Shown: positions 30,653 to 37,453 of the stretch, piece by piece | Position numbering within the stretch: position 1 is the first letter of the stretch | Layout: each line of letters opens with the position of its first letter | Virus record (IMG/VR): IMGVR_UViG_2512047041_000005 | Coordinates: 1-51,583 of that record | Length of the DNA stretch: 51,583 nucleotides | Strand: one strand, 5' to 3' | From: a virus | Taxonomy: Duplodnaviria; Heunggongvirae; Uroviricota; Caudoviricetes | Position numbers and translations under genes: made by a program | Notes under the pieces: generated by a model | What the model was told of the DNA's origin: nothing | The model's database searches: none | What the model saw: only the letters and a program-made list of their open reading frames with translations

Positions 30653-32247
30653 CAGAATCCCTCCAGCATACGGGCCGCCTGACGACGACGGCGTGAGCTT
30701 GCCTTCACCGGCCCTTTGTTAATTTCACGGCTGGCGAAATACGCCAGCGCCAGTGCGATGGCTGAATCCCCGTGGCGTTTACCACCGTCAGCCTTTGCTT
30801 TTGAGCGTTGCTCCGGTACGCGGGGGACACCGTTCACCACCTGAACGGCCCGCAGGTCATCCAGTGTGTCTTCATCCTTTGGTAAGTCCACCAGGTTACC
30901 GTCTTCCAGTGCAGCTTTGACCGGAGGCATATGCTCCCGGTACCAGCCTTCGGTTGGCATCACCTGCTGAACCCGGCTGGAGCCGTAGCGCTGCATGGCG
31001 TATTCAGCCAGATAGGCACCATTACCACGGGCATCAAACGCTGCACCCAGCAGACCGGGCAGGCCATCCATCAGATACCAGGTGATTTGCTCCTGCTGTC
31101 TGAACGGCACGTTACGCAGCTCCAGTACGAATGGCACGCGTCGTACCAGGTTCTTCTCCTGCAGCAGGGGATAGTCCACCGACAAATCACCGCTACGGCC
31201 AAAGTCGCGCCCCAGGAAAGAGCGGGCATCAGTGGGGAGTGCCTCCAGCAAGGGTTTCAGATACTCATCAAGCCAGTCCTGCGTCTCGCGGAAGCGAACC
31301 TCATCAGACAGCAGTTCATAACCTTCCTTGCAGGTCAGACGCAATACCGGCGTATCAGCGGACATGCGGGACTCTATCAGGGCACGGGACAGCCAGGCAC
31401 CGCCACCGTTGGCCGGAATACAGTCAAGCTCTTCGGATGCGCCGGCACCGTAGAATTTGTACACCGATGCCATCCAGGCCTGCTCGGATGCCTCCGACCA
31501 TTCCTTCCCGGTGCGCAGACAGACGCGCCGGAACAGCCCCTCAGATACGGCTTCCCGGAAAGTGATGCGATGTATGCTGCCTCCCTGACGTCCGGCACGG
31601 ATATCCCCGATAAGCGTATTGAACGGATTGTCGTCACCGTCATGGGTGGAGATAACGCGTACCTTTCCCCCCCAGATAAGCATCGCCAGCGCCGCTTTCA
31701 GCAGTTCGTCCAGTTGCTCATGGAACGCCGCTTCGTCGATAACAATAATACCCTGACGGCCACGCAGGTTAGACGGGCGGCTGGAGAGCGCAACAATACG
31801 AAAGCCGGAGTCAGGAAATTTGATGGTGTAAGTCTTGATGTGTTTGTCGTCGTCGTCCTCTTCCCAGAATCCTTCTTCAATTTCACTGGCCGCATAGTTG
31901 AATGCCCGTGCCCACATCGCACACGCCTGAATGTATTCGACGGTCATGTCCTGGTTATAAGCGATGTAATACACATTCATCCCGCCTGCTGGCGCAGAAG
32001 AGGCGGCGGTCAGTACGTTATCGGATGCCTCAGCCCATGTAATACCGGTACGACGGCTCTTTTCTATCACCTTAAGCGGAGAGGTGTCTGCCACCCAGCG
32101 CTGCTGGTAAGGCAGCAGAACGGGAGGGGCATCCAGCGCCGAGGTATCAGGCAAAACGGGAGCAAGGTTATTCCTCCCGTCCATGGGACTCATCCCTTCG
32201 GGGCCGCCGCCAGCGGCGTTTAAAATCACTCCGGATGATTTTGTCAT
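30652..32247 (-). CDS. Terminase large subunit
   Basis: 531 aa with ATPase and nuclease regions; precedes portal. Confidence 0.85.
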   Translation of the reverse strand: MTKSSGVILNAAGGGPEGMSPMDGRNNLAPVLPDTSALDAPPVLLPYQQRWVADTSPLKVIEKSRRTGITWAEASDNVLTAASSAPAGGMNVYYIAYNQDMTVEYIQACAMWARAFNYAASEIEEGFWEEDDDDKHIKTYTIKFPDSGFRIVALSSRPSNLRGRQGIIVIDEAAFHEQLDELLKAALAMLIWGGKVRVISTHDGDDNPFNTLIGDIRAGRQGGSIHRITFREAVSEGLFRRVCLRTGKEWSEASEQAWMASVYKFYGAGASEELDCIPANGGGAWLSRALIESRMSADTPVLRLTCKEGYELLSDEVRFRETQDWLDEYLKPLLEALPTDARSFLGRDFGRSGDLSVDYPLLQEKNLVRRVPFVLELRNVPFRQQEQITWYLMDGLPGLLGAAFDARGNGAYLAEYAMQRYGSSRVQQVMPTEGWYREHMPPVKAALEDGNLVDLPKDEDTLDDLRAVQVVNGVPRVPEQRSKAKADGGKRHGDSAIALALAYFASREINKGPVKASSRRRRQAARMLEGF

Positions 32248-32339
32248 GTGGCAATCCCCAGAATCTCGCGACGAAGCGCCTGTACTGCGTCGCTTGACAG
32301 TCCCCCCTTACGGGCAATTTTCTCGGCGTTGCTGGCTGC

Positions 32340-32789
32340 CTACTGCGCTCTGGCCCGTACTTCAGACTGGAACTTTTTGAGGTTGACGGACGCGCGGGAC
32401 AGCGTAGCCACATTCTTCGCCACCTTCGACAGCAGGGCCACGCGTTCTTTAGGATCGACTTCGCCTTCTTCCGCCTCCTGCAACTGGACAATACTCTCGA
32501 ACAGCTCGGTCTGAATAAGGGCTATCACAGCCTCCGAACGCGCATCCTGATCGTCTGCTGCGCCTTCGGTCAGCATGCGGGCCGCTTCTGTTGCCGCACG
32601 GATAGCACCATAGCGGCGCTCAATCTTCTGTCCATAGCGATGGATAGCGGATTTGCTGATGACGTACCCCCGCTCACGCAGCAGGGACTCCAGCTCGTTA
32701 TACCCGCTGAAGCCGGATTCAGTCAGCGCCCGTTCAAGCCAGCGGCGCACGTCTTCCGGCAGCTTTTCTATTGTGCTGCGTCTGGCCAT
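32340..32789 (-). CDS. Terminase small subunit-like DNA-binding protein
   Basis: 149 aa basic/helical protein immediately upstream of the terminase large subunit. Confidence 0.55.
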   Translation of the reverse strand: MARRSTIEKLPEDVRRWLERALTESGFSGYNELESLLRERGYVISKSAIHRYGQKIERRYGAIRAATEAARMLTEGAADDQDARSEAVIALIQTELFESIVQLQEAEEGEVDPKERVALLSKVAKNVATLSRASVNLKKFQSEVRARAQ

Positions 32790-33100
32790 TATTCACTCCA
32801 GTACTTTTCCGGGCGGGCAATACCCGGACCACATTCCACGGTGTATTCCACCAGGTCTACGCCGAGGCGGGTCAGGTCAGCAAACCAGTCGCCAGAAGGT
32901 TTTTTCTCCAGATCAACCATTTTACGGTCAGCCAGATAATCCAGTTCGCGGCGCAGTTCCAGCGGTGTGGTGTCCGGGTAGATGGCACGGGACACATCCA
33001 GCAGCAGCGTCTCGCTGGCGGTGTAAGGGCGGGTCTTGTTCAGGGCAACCAGCAGACTCCAGCGCAGGGATTCGCGGCGTACCCGGGTAATATCGACCAT
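32789..33100 (-). CDS. Hypothetical protein
   Basis: 103 aa, tightly packed between lysis and packaging genes. Confidence 0.45.
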   Translation of the reverse strand: MVDITRVRRESLRWSLLVALNKTRPYTASETLLLDVSRAIYPDTTPLELRRELDYLADRKMVDLEKKPSGDWFADLTRLGVDLVEYTVECGPGIARPEKYWSE

Positions 33101-33426
33101 TATTGACCTCCGGTATTGCGGTACTGCTGTACCACTTCCAGTTTGTTATAAAGCGCGTCCAGTTTGGCCTCAATGACTGTCTGGCCACGGATATAATCCT
33201 CTCGACGGACATAATTCAGCGGTAAATCCGCTTTAAATCGCATAAATTCTTTTTCCAGCTCGCCCCAGTTGGAGGCGGATTGTTGCAGGGCCTGTTCAAG
33301 GGAGGCGAATCGTGCCGCCTGGCGTTCTTCTGTTTTACTGAACAACCATTTGGCGAGCCCTCCCACAAACCCCATGAAGGTGAGCAGAAAACTCACCACC
33401 GTCCAGAATTCAACCTGCAGTGTCAT
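33100..33426 (-). CDS. Membrane protein with coiled-coil
   Basis: N-terminal TM helix (WTVVSFLLTFMGFVGGLAKWLF) then helical region. Confidence 0.5.
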   Translation of the reverse strand: MTLQVEFWTVVSFLLTFMGFVGGLAKWLFSKTEERQAARFASLEQALQQSASNWGELEKEFMRFKADLPLNYVRREDYIRGQTVIEAKLDALYNKLEVVQQYRNTGGQ

Positions 33427-34073
33427 TTCTGTAATCCTTCCCGTTCATCCAGTAACGCGTTTATCTGGTTCCGCCAGCGACGACATTGTCCTGCGTTGTC
33501 GATGATGTTGGCGAGAACGTCACGCTGGGAGACACCCGAATCGCGTAACCGGGTGTCAGTGGTTTCAGGTTGCCCGGTCGCTGTGCCAGAGCGGGTGCCA
33601 GCGGCGGCAACTGAGTCTGAATGACCGGTGTCGACGGATGCGTTGTCATATCCGAGTGCGGCGTTGTACTGGCGCACGAAACCGCGAGTAAACACGCACT
33701 CAATGGGATGGCTCTTACCTTTTTCATCAATCCAGCGCTGTGTGACATCGTTAATTTGCCCCTGTAGTTGTTTATTCCGGCTCTCCAGTTGAGCAATCTG
33801 CTCAAGATAACCGGCTTCAGCCCGCTGCCCGGCGGCCACCTGCTCCTGATACCGTCTGGCCCAGGCCCGCAGCGCAGCATTCTCAAGCGTTGCCTGCTCC
33901 GTTTTGTACGCGTCAAATGCTGACTGCAACTGACTGAGCGCGGTATCACCGTCACGCTTTGCAGAGTCATGACCACTTCTGTATCCCATGGCATACAGGC
34001 CGACCAGAAAGGCATTGATAAGAATGGCCAGCAGAATGCCGCGCCACGGCAGCTTTTTAATCAGATGCCACAC
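33423..34073 (-). CDS. i-spanin (Rz-like), probable GTG start
   Basis: N-terminal TM (LPWRGILLAILINAFLVGLYAM) and long coiled-coil; GGGGAGG 8 nt upstream of GTG; overlaps endolysin end. Confidence 0.5.
   Translation of the reverse strand: MWHLIKKLPWRGILLAILINAFLVGLYAMGYRSGHDSAKRDGDTALSQLQSAFDAYKTEQATLENAALRAWARRYQEQVAAGQRAEAGYLEQIAQLESRNKQLQGQINDVTQRWIDEKGKSHPIECVFTRGFVRQYNAALGYDNASVDTGHSDSVAAAGTRSGTATGQPETTDTRLRDSGVSQRDVLANIIDNAGQCRRWRNQINALLDEREGLQK
33461..33727 (-). CDS. o-spanin (Rz1-like lipoprotein) embedded in i-spanin
   Basis: +1-frame ORF MKKVRAIPLSACLLAVSCAST with lipobox and proline-rich mature part. Confidence 0.5.
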   Translation of the reverse strand: MKKVRAIPLSACLLAVSCASTTPHSDMTTHPSTPVIQTQLPPLAPALAQRPGNLKPLTPGYAIRVSPSVTFSPTSSTTQDNVVAGGTR

Positions 34074-34797
34074 AACTGCTGCCTCCCCATGTGAGATATC
34101 GCGGTGCCAGTTCGCGCAGGATGCGCTGCGGATAATGGCGGTTCTCCCGCCAGCTGGCCGCATTGCGTCCGGCATTCACCGTGGCGACATGTCCGAACCA
34201 GCGGGTGCTGTCCAGACCTTTCTGTGATGCAAGCCGCCTGTCCCGTTGTACCCAGCCCAGACCACCGTTATAGCCCGACAGTGTCATGGCCATACGCTCG
34301 CAGTCACTGGCGGCGCTGACACGCTGCCACAGCCAGCGGTCATAGCTGACCAGCGCCCGGATAGCCCATGCCGGATTAAACGGCTCACGACTGCTCAGCA
34401 TCGGTATCAACTGGCTTATCCAGTCGGCAGTGGCAGGCATGAACTGCGCCAGTCCCTGAGCGCCAGCCGGCGAGATCGCATCAGGTCGCCAGCCGCTTTC
34501 CTGATGCAGTTGCGCGGCGAAATCGGCCACCGGCGCAGACAGTCCCCATTCAAGCCGGGCATTACGGATCACATCATCGCGATACTGCAGCGCAGCCTGC
34601 GGAGGTTGTGCTGCGCATGCCTGGCTGAAAAAGCCGCCACACCAGAGCAACATTGCGACAAAGAATACCCATGCCATATGAACCAGAAAGGTCCCGGCGC
34701 GGACTGACAGGCGTTCGGTTCTGATGAAGACCCGAAAGGCTTCGAAAGCCAGTTTCAGGGACATGCATACAATCCAGGTGATCTGCGGCCAGTTCAT
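34057..34797 (-). CDS. Endolysin, lytic transglycosylase with N-terminal signal-anchor
   Basis: SLT motif ESGWRPDAISPAGAQGLAQFMPATA; hydrophobic N-terminal segment suggests SAR-type export. Confidence 0.8.
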   Translation of the reverse strand: MNWPQITWIVCMSLKLAFEAFRVFIRTERLSVRAGTFLVHMAWVFFVAMLLWCGGFFSQACAAQPPQAALQYRDDVIRNARLEWGLSAPVADFAAQLHQESGWRPDAISPAGAQGLAQFMPATADWISQLIPMLSSREPFNPAWAIRALVSYDRWLWQRVSAASDCERMAMTLSGYNGGLGWVQRDRRLASQKGLDSTRWFGHVATVNAGRNAASWRENRHYPQRILRELAPRYLTWGGSSCVASD

Positions 34798-34799
34798 GA

Positions 34800-35150
34800 T
34801 TAAAGCCCCATCGCAACAGCCAGGCAGACCGCTGCAACAATCAGTGCACGGCGGATTAACGCAGCAGAAAACACCAGGTGAAGGCCGGTCTGTACCGGGA
34901 AACGCCCTTCAGCCATCAGCCTGTCGTCATGTTTCAGGTACTGACCGGGACGGGCTTTGGGGAAGAGCGAACGGTCAAGCCAGTAACCCAGCACTGCTGC
35001 CAGCGTGATGAGTGCCAGCTTGTAGATCACAACAGGCAGCTGCTGTGGTGAGACCAGAGCGATGGTGCCCAGCAACAGCACTGAGGTCAGCAGCCAGCCG
35101 CTGAGGCGAGGTTTTTTAACAGGGGGAATGAATTTTTTCAGGTTTTTCAT
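34800..35150 (-). CDS. Putative holin
   Basis: 116 aa from internal ATG with GGAG Shine-Dalgarno; three hydrophobic segments; directly upstream of endolysin. Confidence 0.5.
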   Translation of the reverse strand: MKNLKKFIPPVKKPRLSGWLLTSVLLLGTIALVSPQQLPVVIYKLALITLAAVLGYWLDRSLFPKARPGQYLKHDDRLMAEGRFPVQTGLHLVFSAALIRRALIVAAVCLAVAMGL

Positions 35151-35280: not shown

Positions 35281-35757
35281 ATGACGCACACACTGAATCC
35301 GGTCATCACTGTCACTGTGTCCGGTCCTGTGGGCAGCGGTAAAAGTTACGTACTGGCGCGGATAGAAGAGATGGTGAAACAGGAACTCGGAAACAGCGTC
35401 ATTGTCGATGCTGCTGACGTGGAGAATGAGCGCCGTATGAATGGCGAAGATCTGACGACCTGGCAGAAGCCACGGGGTGGCACAGTGATCAGGCTAGAGG
35501 AATACACGGGACAGGGCCTGTTGTCATACGGCGAGGAGCGTATCTGTCGGACGAATGAGCTGCTGGATGTTATATGCCCCACGGGCCGGCAACCCTGGAT
35601 ACTGCCCGATGCACTGCATGCCACCATTGCGGCACTGATGACAGTTTACGATCAGGAGCTGCTCATGAAGGAGTTACGTAAACTCACCGGTCAGCCAACA
35701 GAATGTTGTTCGTCTCCGAAGTACGGCAAACAGGAAAACGCCCCGGATAATCCTTAA
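35281..35757 (+). CDS. Small P-loop NTPase of unknown function
   Basis: 158 aa, Walker A GPVGSGKS at residues 15-22, possible Walker B VIVDAAD; opposite strand to all neighbours. Confidence 0.6.
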   Translation: MTHTLNPVITVTVSGPVGSGKSYVLARIEEMVKQELGNSVIVDAADVENERRMNGEDLTTWQKPRGGTVIRLEEYTGQGLLSYGEERICRTNELLDVICPTGRQPWILPDALHATIAALMTVYDQELLMKELRKLTGQPTECCSSPKYGKQENAPDNP

Positions 35758-35794: not shown

Positions 35795-36382
35795 CTAAAA
35801 AAAGAAGTGTATTATTGCCCAAACAGCTATAACGATGATTCCCAGCCCAAGAGCCGATTCTAACTTATCTTTGGCAGTCATTTTTACTGTTGTAGCGGGC
35901 GCAGGTAAGTCTTGCTGCTGTGGATTTTCTGTTAGTTGTTTACGAGAAGAAACATCGCCCCTATTAGTTTGCTTCATGTTGATTACAGATGCGTTATGGG
36001 CATTATCAGCAGCAATTGACTGAAGTTTTACAAAAGTTTTTGAATCTGTTTTAGCCAGAAGTAACCTATTTCCCGTAAACATTGCCTTAAAAGTGATAGT
36101 TTTTTTCGTCTTGTCCGCCGCACCAAGCAAACCTCCAATGACCAACCCTGCACCACCAAAGATTAATCCACCAAGCAAACCTGCGCCTGCCGCCTTACCT
36201 ATACGGCTTTCCTCTTCACTATCCGCAAGTTCAATCGATAAAAGCTCTTCTTTCAGATTTAATACAATATTTTCAGGAAAGCCTTGTTTTGGTTTTTTGG
36301 CAAACACGATGGTACCGAACCCCATGCTTGCCCACCCTTTAGGAAAACTTCCTGCGATAACCTGAATCCCTGCCATGTTCAT
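35795..36382 (-). CDS. Membrane protein with glycine-zipper segment and C-terminal TM helix
   Basis: AAGAGLLGGLIFGGAGLVIGGLLGAA plus C-terminal LGLGIIVIAVWAIIHFFF; AT-rich; last gene of the repressor operon. Confidence 0.65.
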   Translation of the reverse strand: MNMAGIQVIAGSFPKGWASMGFGTIVFAKKPKQGFPENIVLNLKEELLSIELADSEEESRIGKAAGAGLLGGLIFGGAGLVIGGLLGAADKTKKTITFKAMFTGNRLLLAKTDSKTFVKLQSIAADNAHNASVINMKQTNRGDVSSRKQLTENPQQQDLPAPATTVKMTAKDKLESALGLGIIVIAVWAIIHFFF

Positions 36383-36466
36383 CACCTTTTACATTAAAAT
36401 TTCAGAACGCAGCATGATGCCGCCTTTGTCTTTTTTCTGATCCCATGGTAATTCAGCTGTTATTTT

Positions 36467-37453
36467 CTATTTAAGAATAAAACGGTATTTACTGTCAGGA
36501 GTGCTTTGCTGATCAAGTAGCAGTGAACGACATGGAGCAGTCAAAACCCGAGCATAACTACCATCAGGGCTTATGTTAATGTAACAAACCTTGCCCTTAA
36601 CACTATAATTTTCGGGGACGGATGCCTTTGCTGATACAGTAAATTTAAGGGTATGCCAGCCCGTTTTTTGCTTGTAGCTTGAAACCGAATGGAAATCATC
36701 TGAGTACTTATTTAACCCTGGAAACATGCTGCGCAGTGCGGGGATGGAATCTTCTATTATTTTATCGTTGGTTTTAATGTTAAAAACGCTGGTTTCAGTA
36801 GAAGCTACTGCTTTGGCATTTCCCCATTTACCAGCGAACACAATCATTCCCACGAAAAATATTGCTACAAGAACTAACACTCCCCCCAACACTACTACAT
36901 GAGGCTTCCGGCTTCTGGTTGGTACAGTTGCGACTGATTTTGCACCGCTTTCCGATGGAGGTGATAGAGTTTTACTCTCATCACGAATATTCAGCAGATC
37001 ATCAAAATAACCAAACACAGCCTGCAACTGCTCTTTGTCTAGGCCTTTAAGATGGGTTGTACCGAAATGCTTCAGACAGTATCTGTCACGGTCAAGACGA
37101 TACCCAGGGTCAGTAAGCGCCATTATTTTGCTGACCAGAAGATTACAGTCCTTCATATTCTGGATCTGTTGTGCATATCTCTGAAGGATCTCAACCGCAC
37201 CATGATAATCAGCCGCAGTCATTTCATTAACTGTTTTGGTATTAAGTTTCGTGTGGATCGTCATCCATAGCTCGCGCTTACTTTCCCCCAGATCAACCAA
37301 TTCATCCATCAATCTGTGTAAATCGCGTTTTTGCAGCAACGAAATTGGTTGCTGGGCCGAAGGAAGTATGTCAGCAGAATAGTTATGAATGGTAACATCA
37401 CCGCTGACAACGTTACCCACATCCCCGTTAACTGTTTGCTTCTCTTTACTCAT
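36467..37453 (-). CDS. Bitopic membrane protein (cytoplasmic N domain, one TM, periplasmic C domain)
   Basis: 328 aa; TM HVVVLGGVLVLVAIFFVGMIVFAG; start overlaps repressor stop by 4 nt. Confidence 0.7.
   Translation of the reverse strand: MSKEKQTVNGDVGNVVSGDVTIHNYSADILPSAQQPISLLQKRDLHRLMDELVDLGESKRELWMTIHTKLNTKTVNEMTAADYHGAVEILQRYAQQIQNMKDCNLLVSKIMALTDPGYRLDRDRYCLKHFGTTHLKGLDKEQLQAVFGYFDDLLNIRDESKTLSPPSESGAKSVATVPTRSRKPHVVVLGGVLVLVAIFFVGMIVFAGKWGNAKAVASTETSVFNIKTNDKIIEDSIPALRSMFPGLNKYSDDFHSVSSYKQKTGWHTLKFTVSAKASVPENYSVKGKVCYINISPDGSYARVLTAPCRSLLLDQQSTPDSKYRFILK

Follow-up and report, generated by a model that had tools for sequence, protein, structure and literature searches.

A BcepMu-type lysis cassette in an Escherichia coli prophage, with a two-helix membrane module fused to its endolysin and a probable signal-peptidase site behind the module

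The stretch of DNA analysed here (51,583 nucleotides, positions 1 to 51,583 of IMG/VR record IMGVR_UViG_2512047041_000005; "the window") carries at 33423-35150, on its minus strand, four tightly coupled open reading frames (ORFs) that very probably serve a Bcepmuvirus-like (BcepMu-type, Mu-like transposable) E. coli prophage as its late lysis cassette: a putative holin, an endolysin related to lytic transglycosylases, an inner-membrane spanin subunit (i-spanin) and, embedded in the i-spanin gene, an outer-membrane one (o-spanin). The assignment is based on the families to which the products belong, on synteny and pairwise homology with BcepMu, on the aligned catalytic glutamate of the endolysin and on the conservation of the o-spanin. 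Such a cassette is of an ordinary kind, already catalogued; its one unusual detail is the endolysin, to which a small membrane protein has been fused at the N-terminus, followed by a conserved site with the look of a signal-peptidase I substrate.

An earlier reading made from the sequence alone (the sequence-only reading) had placed the four ORFs at exactly these positions and on this strand, and all of them are found there (Table 1). They are closely packed, the endolysin ATG lying 2 nucleotides (nt) past the holin stop codon and the i-spanin start overlapping the end of the endolysin gene by 17 nt; a promoter and terminator scan of the cassette gave none above shuffled expectation. Of 5426 complete E. 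coli genomes, 637 contain the 2.3-kb stretch with the cassette, which is 100% identical in many chromosomes and 99.3% identical in Escherichia phage PhiKM, whose GenBank record is classified as Bcepmuvirus. RefSeq has the same four coding-sequence (CDS) boundaries, including the GTG start of the i-spanin, though the embedded ORF is never annotated. Since about 12% of complete E. coli genomes contain it and most of it is annotated already, the cassette as so described matters little in itself.

The same gene order is seen in BcepMu (NC_005882), with holin gp21, endolysin gp22, Rz gp23 and its embedded +1 Rz1 gp24, then gp25, gp26 and the small terminase gp27; that cassette was reportedly described in 2004. 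Identities to the window proteins are 52% for the holin, about 58% for the endolysin, 25% for the i-spanin, 35% for the o-spanin and 51% for gp25. The Pseudomonas B3-like transposable phages (Beetrevirus JBD18 and relatives, among them Ps56 and Fc02) share the holin, the endolysin (55-56% identity, about 60% over its catalytic part, by tblastn), an i-spanin of phrog_1403 and an embedded or overlapped o-spanin. They differ in having a separate 52-amino-acid (aa) gene of the phrog_5479 type, an endolysin with a lipobox-like signal of its own (MKRLLTLGLLGLLSAC) and an extra small ORF ahead of the i-spanin, and in the gene that follows the spanins, which belongs to phrog_462 in JBD18 and to DUF2730 in Ps56.

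The holin-like protein of the sequence-only reading is matched by Pfam Holin_2-3 (PF13272; over the full length, E=1.1e-41, 141.8 bits against a cut-off of 27), by phrog_1528 "holin" (E=5.5e-55), and by BcepMu gp21 in BLASTP (E=6e-29); RefSeq labels it "putative holin". It is thus a Holin_2-3 member by its hidden Markov model match, and a small protein adjoining the endolysin, with hole formation and timing as its putative functions. The reading of the next gene as a lytic transglycosylase was equally well founded. Its product matches Pfam SLT (PF01464; E=1.8e-14, 53.8 bits against a cut-off of 21.3) and phrog_669 "endolysin" (E=8e-69), and is 58% identical to BcepMu gp22 from residue ~64 onward; in tblastn against phages, the homology to the BcepMu and Pseudomonas enzymes is found only from residue 72 on. 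A profile of the endolysin family matches E. coli Slt70 in a search of PDB sequences (E=1.4e-8), with QES100-101GW aligned to the QE478S of Slt70, so that E100 corresponds to the catalytic E478; E100, S101 and the Y176-N-G-G motif are invariant or nearly so in the family.

Ahead of this catalytic part, the enterobacterial endolysin is an in-frame fusion with a membrane protein of the phrog_5479 type, as can be seen from the fact that phrog_5479, a family of stand-alone 53-aa phage proteins of unknown function, matches the module at full length and is encoded by a separate gene in Pseudomonas B3-like phages. The match is E=4.8e-4 for the window allele (residues 1-58 against profile positions 1-53), E=4.4e-15 for the common enterobacterial allele and E=2.4e-31 for Ps56_26, and the module is also linked to the stand-alone protein by BLASTP (E=7e-4). 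In the Beetrevirus JBD18 and in Ps56 the separate 52-aa gene (Ps56_26/JBD18 gp22) sits between holin and endolysin, and its product, MGAPQIIWIV...ALVWWGGFFG to the stop codon, resembles the module MNWPQITWIV...LLWCGGFF. Of the 120 closest homologues, 80 have the module in full, and these belong to E. coli, Salmonella, Pantoea, Serratia, Pectobacterium, Dickeya, Morganella and Arsenophonus; among representatives of clusters made at 50% identity fusion is rare, with 3 cases in about 114 classifiable sequences. AlphaFold2 (AF2) models helices at residues 3-25 and 30-53, then a low-confidence linker at 61-63 (predicted local distance difference test, pLDDT, below 50) and a helical catalytic domain.

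Within the module, the middle segment of the window allele (34660-34775, minus strand; nt 25-135 of the endolysin gene) has been replaced and cannot be aligned to that of prophages which are otherwise 99% identical (L011). The homologues show six or more allele types here, with constant ends, M.WPQI and WLLWCGGFFSQA.AA. A frameshift origin of the window allele was ruled out, as the replaced mosaic segment stays in frame, and an internal start at M41 was also rejected, there being no Shine-Dalgarno sequence before it and no such Met in other alleles. In five of the six allele types the interhelical loop carries a net positive charge, which argues for a hairpin with the N-terminus out, the basic loop in and the C-terminus out, so that the enzyme would lie in the periplasm and helix 2 would act as an internal signal sequence. 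In one related locus (L073, IMGVR_UViG_2898975184_000011, from ~1764-1878 on) the fused endolysin is split, a 37-aa ORF corresponding to helix 1 and a shortened endolysin starting at MLWSGGFF; the i-spanin there is likewise shorter and the o-spanin of the "overlapped" kind. Probably this copy is degraded.

Directly after the GGFF that closes the module, the homologues read S-Q-A-x-A↓A-(Q/E)-P-P, where the arrow marks the putative cut, and the window has A60-C61-A62↓A63-Q-P-P, without proline at +1. In fixed register over 116 homologues, position -3 is A, S, V or G in 111, -1 is A or S in 115 and +1 is A in 112, whereas ten different residues are found at -2; small ones at -3 and -1 make up the classical signal-peptidase I pattern. 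(A generic small-x-small motif within 22 residues is present in 97 of 107 cluster representatives, but this is too permissive, and the fixed-register counts are used instead.) The pattern is common to three unrelated N-terminal modules. In relatives the same site and mature N-terminus follow a Leu-rich signal peptide (MARRIHYNGSGSGWLFLLLILLLTGAFGSNA↓AQPP), and the same site is also found after a different two-helix module and after the signal of BcepMu (...PVAA↓QVP). BcepMu gp22, at 203 aa, has just a single short hydrophobic signal (MRVLIAFVVALLGAAAPVAA↓QVP), as against the 246-aa E. coli enzyme with its fused two-helix module. Most of the 50%-identity cluster representatives carry short classical signal peptides that end in A-x-A immediately ahead of this mature N-terminus, e.g. 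MKWLVGFLLILLTSPSFA↓QIPSAANQYK, and about 16 of 149 have lipobox-type signals, including those of Pseudomonas phages. The Pseudomonas B3-like endolysins (L006 and L007, 2408-2460; P0104) open with a textbook lipoprotein signal, MKRLLTLGLLGLLSAC, or LLSGC in P0104; the literature treats them as signal-anchor-release (SAR) endolysins.

The sequence-only reading had likewise called the N-terminus of the window enzyme a hydrophobic anchor, a candidate for the SAR type, and had named a cleavable signal peptide as what would speak against that view. The label is not supported. In place of the single, weakly hydrophobic transmembrane domain (TMD) of a SAR endolysin there are two helices in the AF2 model, and helix 2 has a G/A/S/T fraction of 0.26 and 30% aromatics, as against a fraction of about 0.63 (hand count) in the proven SAR segment of Mu gp22, AALLAVTIAGGGVGGY. 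SAR endolysins have a short cytoplasmic N-terminus carrying one to three basic residues, but here helix 2 comes after 34 residues, among them four arginines (R22, R26, R28, R33) and the first helix; adding basic residues at the N-terminus is known to keep SAR domains locked in the membrane (Chamblee et al. 2022, PMC9239132). A scan of summed Hessa and Kyte-Doolittle hydropathy gave similar values for known SAR domains, for signal peptides and for the window endolysin, and so does not tell them apart. The c-region is that of a Sec signal peptide, with a hydrophobic core, small residues at -3 and -1 and no proline at +1, though the canonical n-h-c layout at the extreme N-terminus is absent, the signal being internal (residues 35-57, 21-23 long) with another helix before it. 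Processing by signal peptidase appears more likely than SAR release because of the conserved A-x-A↓A-Q-P-P site, which is the same site that follows classical signals and lipoboxes elsewhere in the family. We therefore think that "SAR-type" should give way to [quoted passage not shown], and that a cleavable signal is the likelier state. We incline, if only slightly, to the view that leader peptidase would cut at A62↓A63 and leave a membrane fragment of about 62 aa and a free periplasmic enzyme of 184 aa.

Several observations weigh against this account. Helix 2, at 21-23 residues, is longer than typical cleaved h-regions, and such length can favour an uncleaved anchor. A constitutively secreted muralytic enzyme, once cleaved, needs some further restraint, of which none was identified; the only precedent found for a restraint that depends on the proton-motive force is Lys44, from a Gram-positive host (PMC6116005). 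Helix 1 of the window allele is poorly hydrophobic (K15, E19, R22), which makes the two-span topology less secure here than in the common allele, with the very basic RTERLSVR loop behind it. The AF2 model of the endolysin is itself moderate (mean pLDDT 65.7) and was used for secondary structure only.

It could also be that the endolysin is SAR-type after all, or is otherwise held by an uncleaved tether, either helix 2 or the whole hairpin, and is freed when the holin depolarises the membrane, with the gp25-like protein encoded after the spanins possibly aiding as the Mu releasin does. Coliphages offer well-established cases of endolysins that are exported without being cleaved (P1 Lyz, phage 21 R21, Mu gp22), and related Pseudomonas transglycosylases have been classed as SAR endolysins paired with DUF2730 proteins (Chamblee et al.). 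Helix 2 has sufficient length for a stable anchor, the strictly conserved WLLWCGGFF suggests a role beyond that of a disposable signal, and the membrane protein after the spanins is of releasin-like size, topology and position. To leave the membrane, however, helix 2 would have to pull through it the whole 34-residue N-terminal segment with its loop of four arginines (R26-R33), of the basic kind that locks SAR domains in; its composition is far from that of Mu gp22; small residues at -3 and -1 around a hypervariable -2 look like a peptidase site and not like a SAR domain; and the gp25-like family is not DUF2730. On this evidence an uncleaved tether seems unlikely, though less so than the other alternatives discussed below.

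Returning to signal-peptidase processing, the closest parallels each cover part of what is seen. Like P1 Lyz, R21 and Mu gp22, the window enzyme would be exported independently of the holin by a Sec-dependent N-terminal signal in a Gram-negative host; those three are lysozyme-type muramidases with one helix, while this is a transglycosylase with two, of un-SAR-like composition, with a long, strongly basic cytoplasmic stretch and a peptidase-type site after the anchor. Lys44 of the Oenococcus phage fOg44 likewise has a Sec signal with a signal-peptidase site, and the enzyme is kept in check for as long as the holin leaves the proton-motive force intact (PMC6116005); it differs in its Gram-positive host, and the signal in the window is internal, is preceded by a helix and is derived from a separate membrane protein, with cleavage being putative. 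A preprint on a UPEC endolysin deals with another phage. It is conceivable, as a tentative suggestion, that the endolysin gene is a natural fusion which yields two lysis proteins once the product is cut, the membrane protein, counterpart of the separate gene product of the Pseudomonas B3-like phages, being perhaps an antiholin or a holin partner, or else that the uncut product is a hairpin-anchored endolysin in need of a new release factor, for which the phrog_462 protein would serve as a non-homologous analogue of the releasin. [quoted passage not shown]

The way in which these proteins would act -- topology, cleavage, timing and every function -- is predicted from sequence and would follow the established multigene-lysis model. 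The PF13272 holin would accumulate in the inner membrane and set the time of lysis by collapsing or permeabilising it. The SLT transglycosylase would be exported by Sec, independently of the holin, with helix 2 as an internal signal and a leader-peptidase cut at A-x-A↓A; it would be held back until the holin depolarises the membrane, and would then degrade the murein. The i-spanin, anchored in the inner membrane, and the lipid-anchored o-spanin would together span the periplasm and disrupt the outer membrane once the wall is gone.

Table 1. Lysis-region features of the window (positions are those of the whole stretch)
Feature	Position	Strand	Remarks
Holin	34800-35150	-	116 aa; GAGGAG Shine-Dalgarno; Holin_2-3 family
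Endolysin	34057-34797	-	246 aa; family-1 lytic transglycosylase with fused N-terminal membrane module
Two-helix membrane module, endolysin residues 1-57	34627-34797	-	helix 1, loop RTERLSVR, helix 2 to WCGGFF
Putative signal-peptidase I c-region, endolysin residues 58-62 (S-Q-A-C-A)	34612-34626	-	predicted cut A62/A63
i-spanin	34073-33423	-	216 aa, GTG start; GGGGAGG Shine-Dalgarno 8 nt upstream
o-spanin, embedded in the +1 frame	33748 (or 33727) to 33461	-	95 aa from ATG 33748, 88 aa from ATG 33727
gp25-like membrane protein	33100-33426	-	108 aa; start overlaps i-spanin stop (ATGA)

The gp25-like gene that follows the spanins perhaps belongs to the cassette as an accessory fifth gene. Its product has a short N-out tail (MTLQVE), a TMD with a K/R-rich flank and a cytoplasmic coiled coil, LPLxYVRREDYIRGQTVIEAKLDALYNKLE; it belongs to the large, conserved family phrog_462 (E=1.6e-36) and is 51% identical to BcepMu gp25. 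In Mu this slot is filled by the releasin gp25 (DUF2730, PF10805), which the SAR endolysin requires for its release (Chamblee et al. 2022, PMC9239132). The two are alike in position (after the spanins and before gp26/TerS, the small terminase), in size (99 aa in Mu) and in having an N-out TMD and a cytoplasmic coiled coil, and the window protein fits the layout expected of a releasin: a single N-out/C-in TMD, a cytoplasmic domain of about 75 aa and a location within five genes downstream of the endolysin in a transposable phage. They differ in that no homology between them can be detected: the gp25-like protein has no PF10805 match at E<=10 in Pfam, none of 40 phrog_462-family members matches PF10805 at E<=1, and profile-profile comparison of the family with DUF2730 by hhalign gives a probability of 1.2%, while PF10805 does match Mu gp25 and Ps56_30. 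(The DUF2730 profile was built from a protein search; a scan of viral contigs gave only near-identical copies of Mu.) Two homologues with about 60% identity, P0183 (Dickeya) and P0222 (Brenneria), bear the name "DUF2730" in UniRef, but have no PF10805 match at E<=1 and an empty Pfam field, so the name was not accepted. JBD18 and Ps56 have near-identical holins, small proteins and endolysins, yet the slot holds a phrog_462 protein in JBD18 and a DUF2730 protein in Ps56 (L006 3833-4222 vs L007 3862-4182); the two families thus replace each other positionally without being detectably homologous. By this analogy a releasin-like or other lysis-accessory role for the phrog_462 protein is offered tentatively, as a lead, and the presence of such a protein in the releasin slot without its being DUF2730 makes it a candidate for testing how general releasin function is.

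The prophage copy in the window is probably defective. The small terminase gene immediately downstream (Mu gp27-type, DUF3486; 32244-32789, minus strand) has an in-frame stop after codon 149, at 32340-32342, with 31 more codons following, and in E. coli IAI39, which has a 100% identical cassette, RefSeq flags the small terminase, the GPW/gp25 baseplate gene and one other prophage gene as pseudogenes. Given the stop in the small terminase, the cassette may never act in a productive cycle in this strain, a further point to be set against the functional account above. One might go on to regard the cassette as an inert relic, inactive in this strain and with genes kept intact by recency, not selection. 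This we consider quite improbable, as all five ORFs of the lysis region are intact, identical in many genomes and 99.3% identical in PhiKM, purifying selection is seen across the family in both of the overlapping frames, and the lysis genes of defective prophages can still kill once induced; in any case it bears on the fate of this copy and not on the identity of the cassette.

The i-spanin gene corresponds to the RefSeq CDS WP_000264661, "lysis system spanin subunit", with the identical start, so that the GTG start proposed in the sequence-only reading is sustained both by this and by the Shine-Dalgarno sequence before it. Its product matches phrog_1403 "Rz-like spanin" over the full length (E=3.8e-92) and aligns with BcepMu gp23 (25% identity) and JBD18 gp25, both of them SpaninDB entries. 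It begins MWHLIKKLPWR, followed by a hydrophobic segment of about 20 residues and a long polar domain, as in a type II TMD protein, and its predicted layout is an N-terminal TMD, a helical periplasmic domain, a Gly/Ser/Thr linker and a C-terminal helix. Its names vary among records, from "hypothetical protein", "lipoprotein" and "putative lipoprotein" to "lysis system spanin subunit"; in a very common prophage, the o-spanin is missing from the RefSeq and GenBank annotation and its partner is inconsistently named.

The o-spanin ORF lies wholly inside the i-spanin gene, at 0.50-0.94 of its length, and in its +1 frame, since 34073-33727 = 346 = 3x115+1. Its predicted signal ends in the lipobox L-L-A-V-S-C (MKKVRAIPLSACLLAVSC↓AS...), giving a mature form of 71 aa from the cysteine, with 11 prolines, whichever start is used. 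The alanine at -3 misses the strict consensus [LVI][ASTVI][GAS]C, though the box fits the permissive PROSITE-type pattern. Deviant lipoboxes have been documented in spanins (Kongari et al. 2018, PMC6139136). The cysteine is conserved and there is no aspartate at +2; with alanine in that position, sorting to the outer membrane would be expected. Among 65 distinct i-spanin genes drawn from 80 IMG/VR loci and reference phages, 64 have a lipoprotein ORF in the +1 frame at about 0.5-0.94 of the i-spanin length, with a basic n-region, hydrophobic core and lipobox cysteine, down to 31% i-spanin identity; the conserved core reads ...ACLL(A/L)(V/A)SC↓(A/S)STTP...LPPL.PAL..RP..L.PL.PGYA, the lipobox varying among AVSC, AASC, LASC, LVSC, AAGC and LSAC and +2 being alanine or serine. 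Synonymous differences between i-spanin genes are 0.135 in the overlap and 0.295 outside it (49 enterobacterial genes, compared pairwise; Mann-Whitney p=3e-10), a halving such as a second frame under constraint would be expected to produce. The embedded ORF is also homologous to the annotated Rz1 of BcepMu, gp24 (35% identity, BLASTP E=6e-6, aligned from residue 1).

The embedded o-spanin is thus real, far beyond chance. That it might be a chance open frame in a GC-rich gene, as could be argued from the lack of any match in Pfam, PHROGs or NCBIfam, the lack of annotation in the E. coli chromosome and E. coli/Klebsiella phage records checked (NZ_CM144251, NZ_CP032261, NC_011750, PQ738613, OM835952), the alanine in the lipobox where Leu, Val or Ile is usual and the weak Shine-Dalgarno signals, is effectively refuted already by the signal peptide, cysteine and PP..P.L..RP..L.PL.PGYA core kept in those 64 relatives, by the drop in synonymous variation, by the homology to BcepMu Rz1 and by a position within the i-spanin gene that is typical for embedded spanins.

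Of the 88-aa lipoprotein ORF proposed in the sequence-only reading, the ORF itself, its frame and a usable lipobox all stand, but the start is probably the ATG 21 nt upstream, at 33748 (MSHSAGLMKKV...), to judge from its better Shine-Dalgarno sequence (AGGGG, 10-nt spacing), from the relatives which lack the internal Met and keep the upstream one, and from its alignment with residue 1 of the annotated BcepMu Rz1. The protein was also described as longer than usual, which is so only by comparison with lambda Rz1 (60 aa); the family ranges from 84 to 102 aa, so that the length is normal. In SpaninDB the o-spanins of BcepMu, JBD25 and B3/JBD18 have 84, 91 and 102 aa, and embedded ones overall have 48-102 aa; the spanins of BcepMu/phiE255 and of B3, JBD18, JBD25 and JBD67 are catalogued as embedded two-component systems (Kongari et al. 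2018, PMC6139136). Like lambda Rz/Rz1, the pair combines a type II i-spanin with a Pro-rich lipoprotein in the +1 frame inside it, at about 0.5-0.9 of its length; it differs in having no detectable sequence similarity to the lambda proteins, in size (216 and 88-95 aa, against 153 and 60 in lambda) and in a mature o-spanin with no cysteine besides the lipidated one.

On the other side of the cassette, the holin is adjoined by a divergent 158-aa ORF (35281-35757, plus strand), called "ABC transporter ATPase" in RefSeq, with a weak match to AAA_30 (E=0.003) and membership of phrog_3787, of unknown function. The gene beside the holin is 729 nt long in other strains and in PhiKM, which marks this as a variable, moron-like position. 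Beyond it, two membrane-protein ORFs of unknown function, at 35795-36385 (minus strand, phrog_12025) and 36467-37453 (minus strand, 328 aa, one TMD), separate the lysis cassette from the regulatory genes, in the place where BcepMu has its membrane protein gp18 and gp19.

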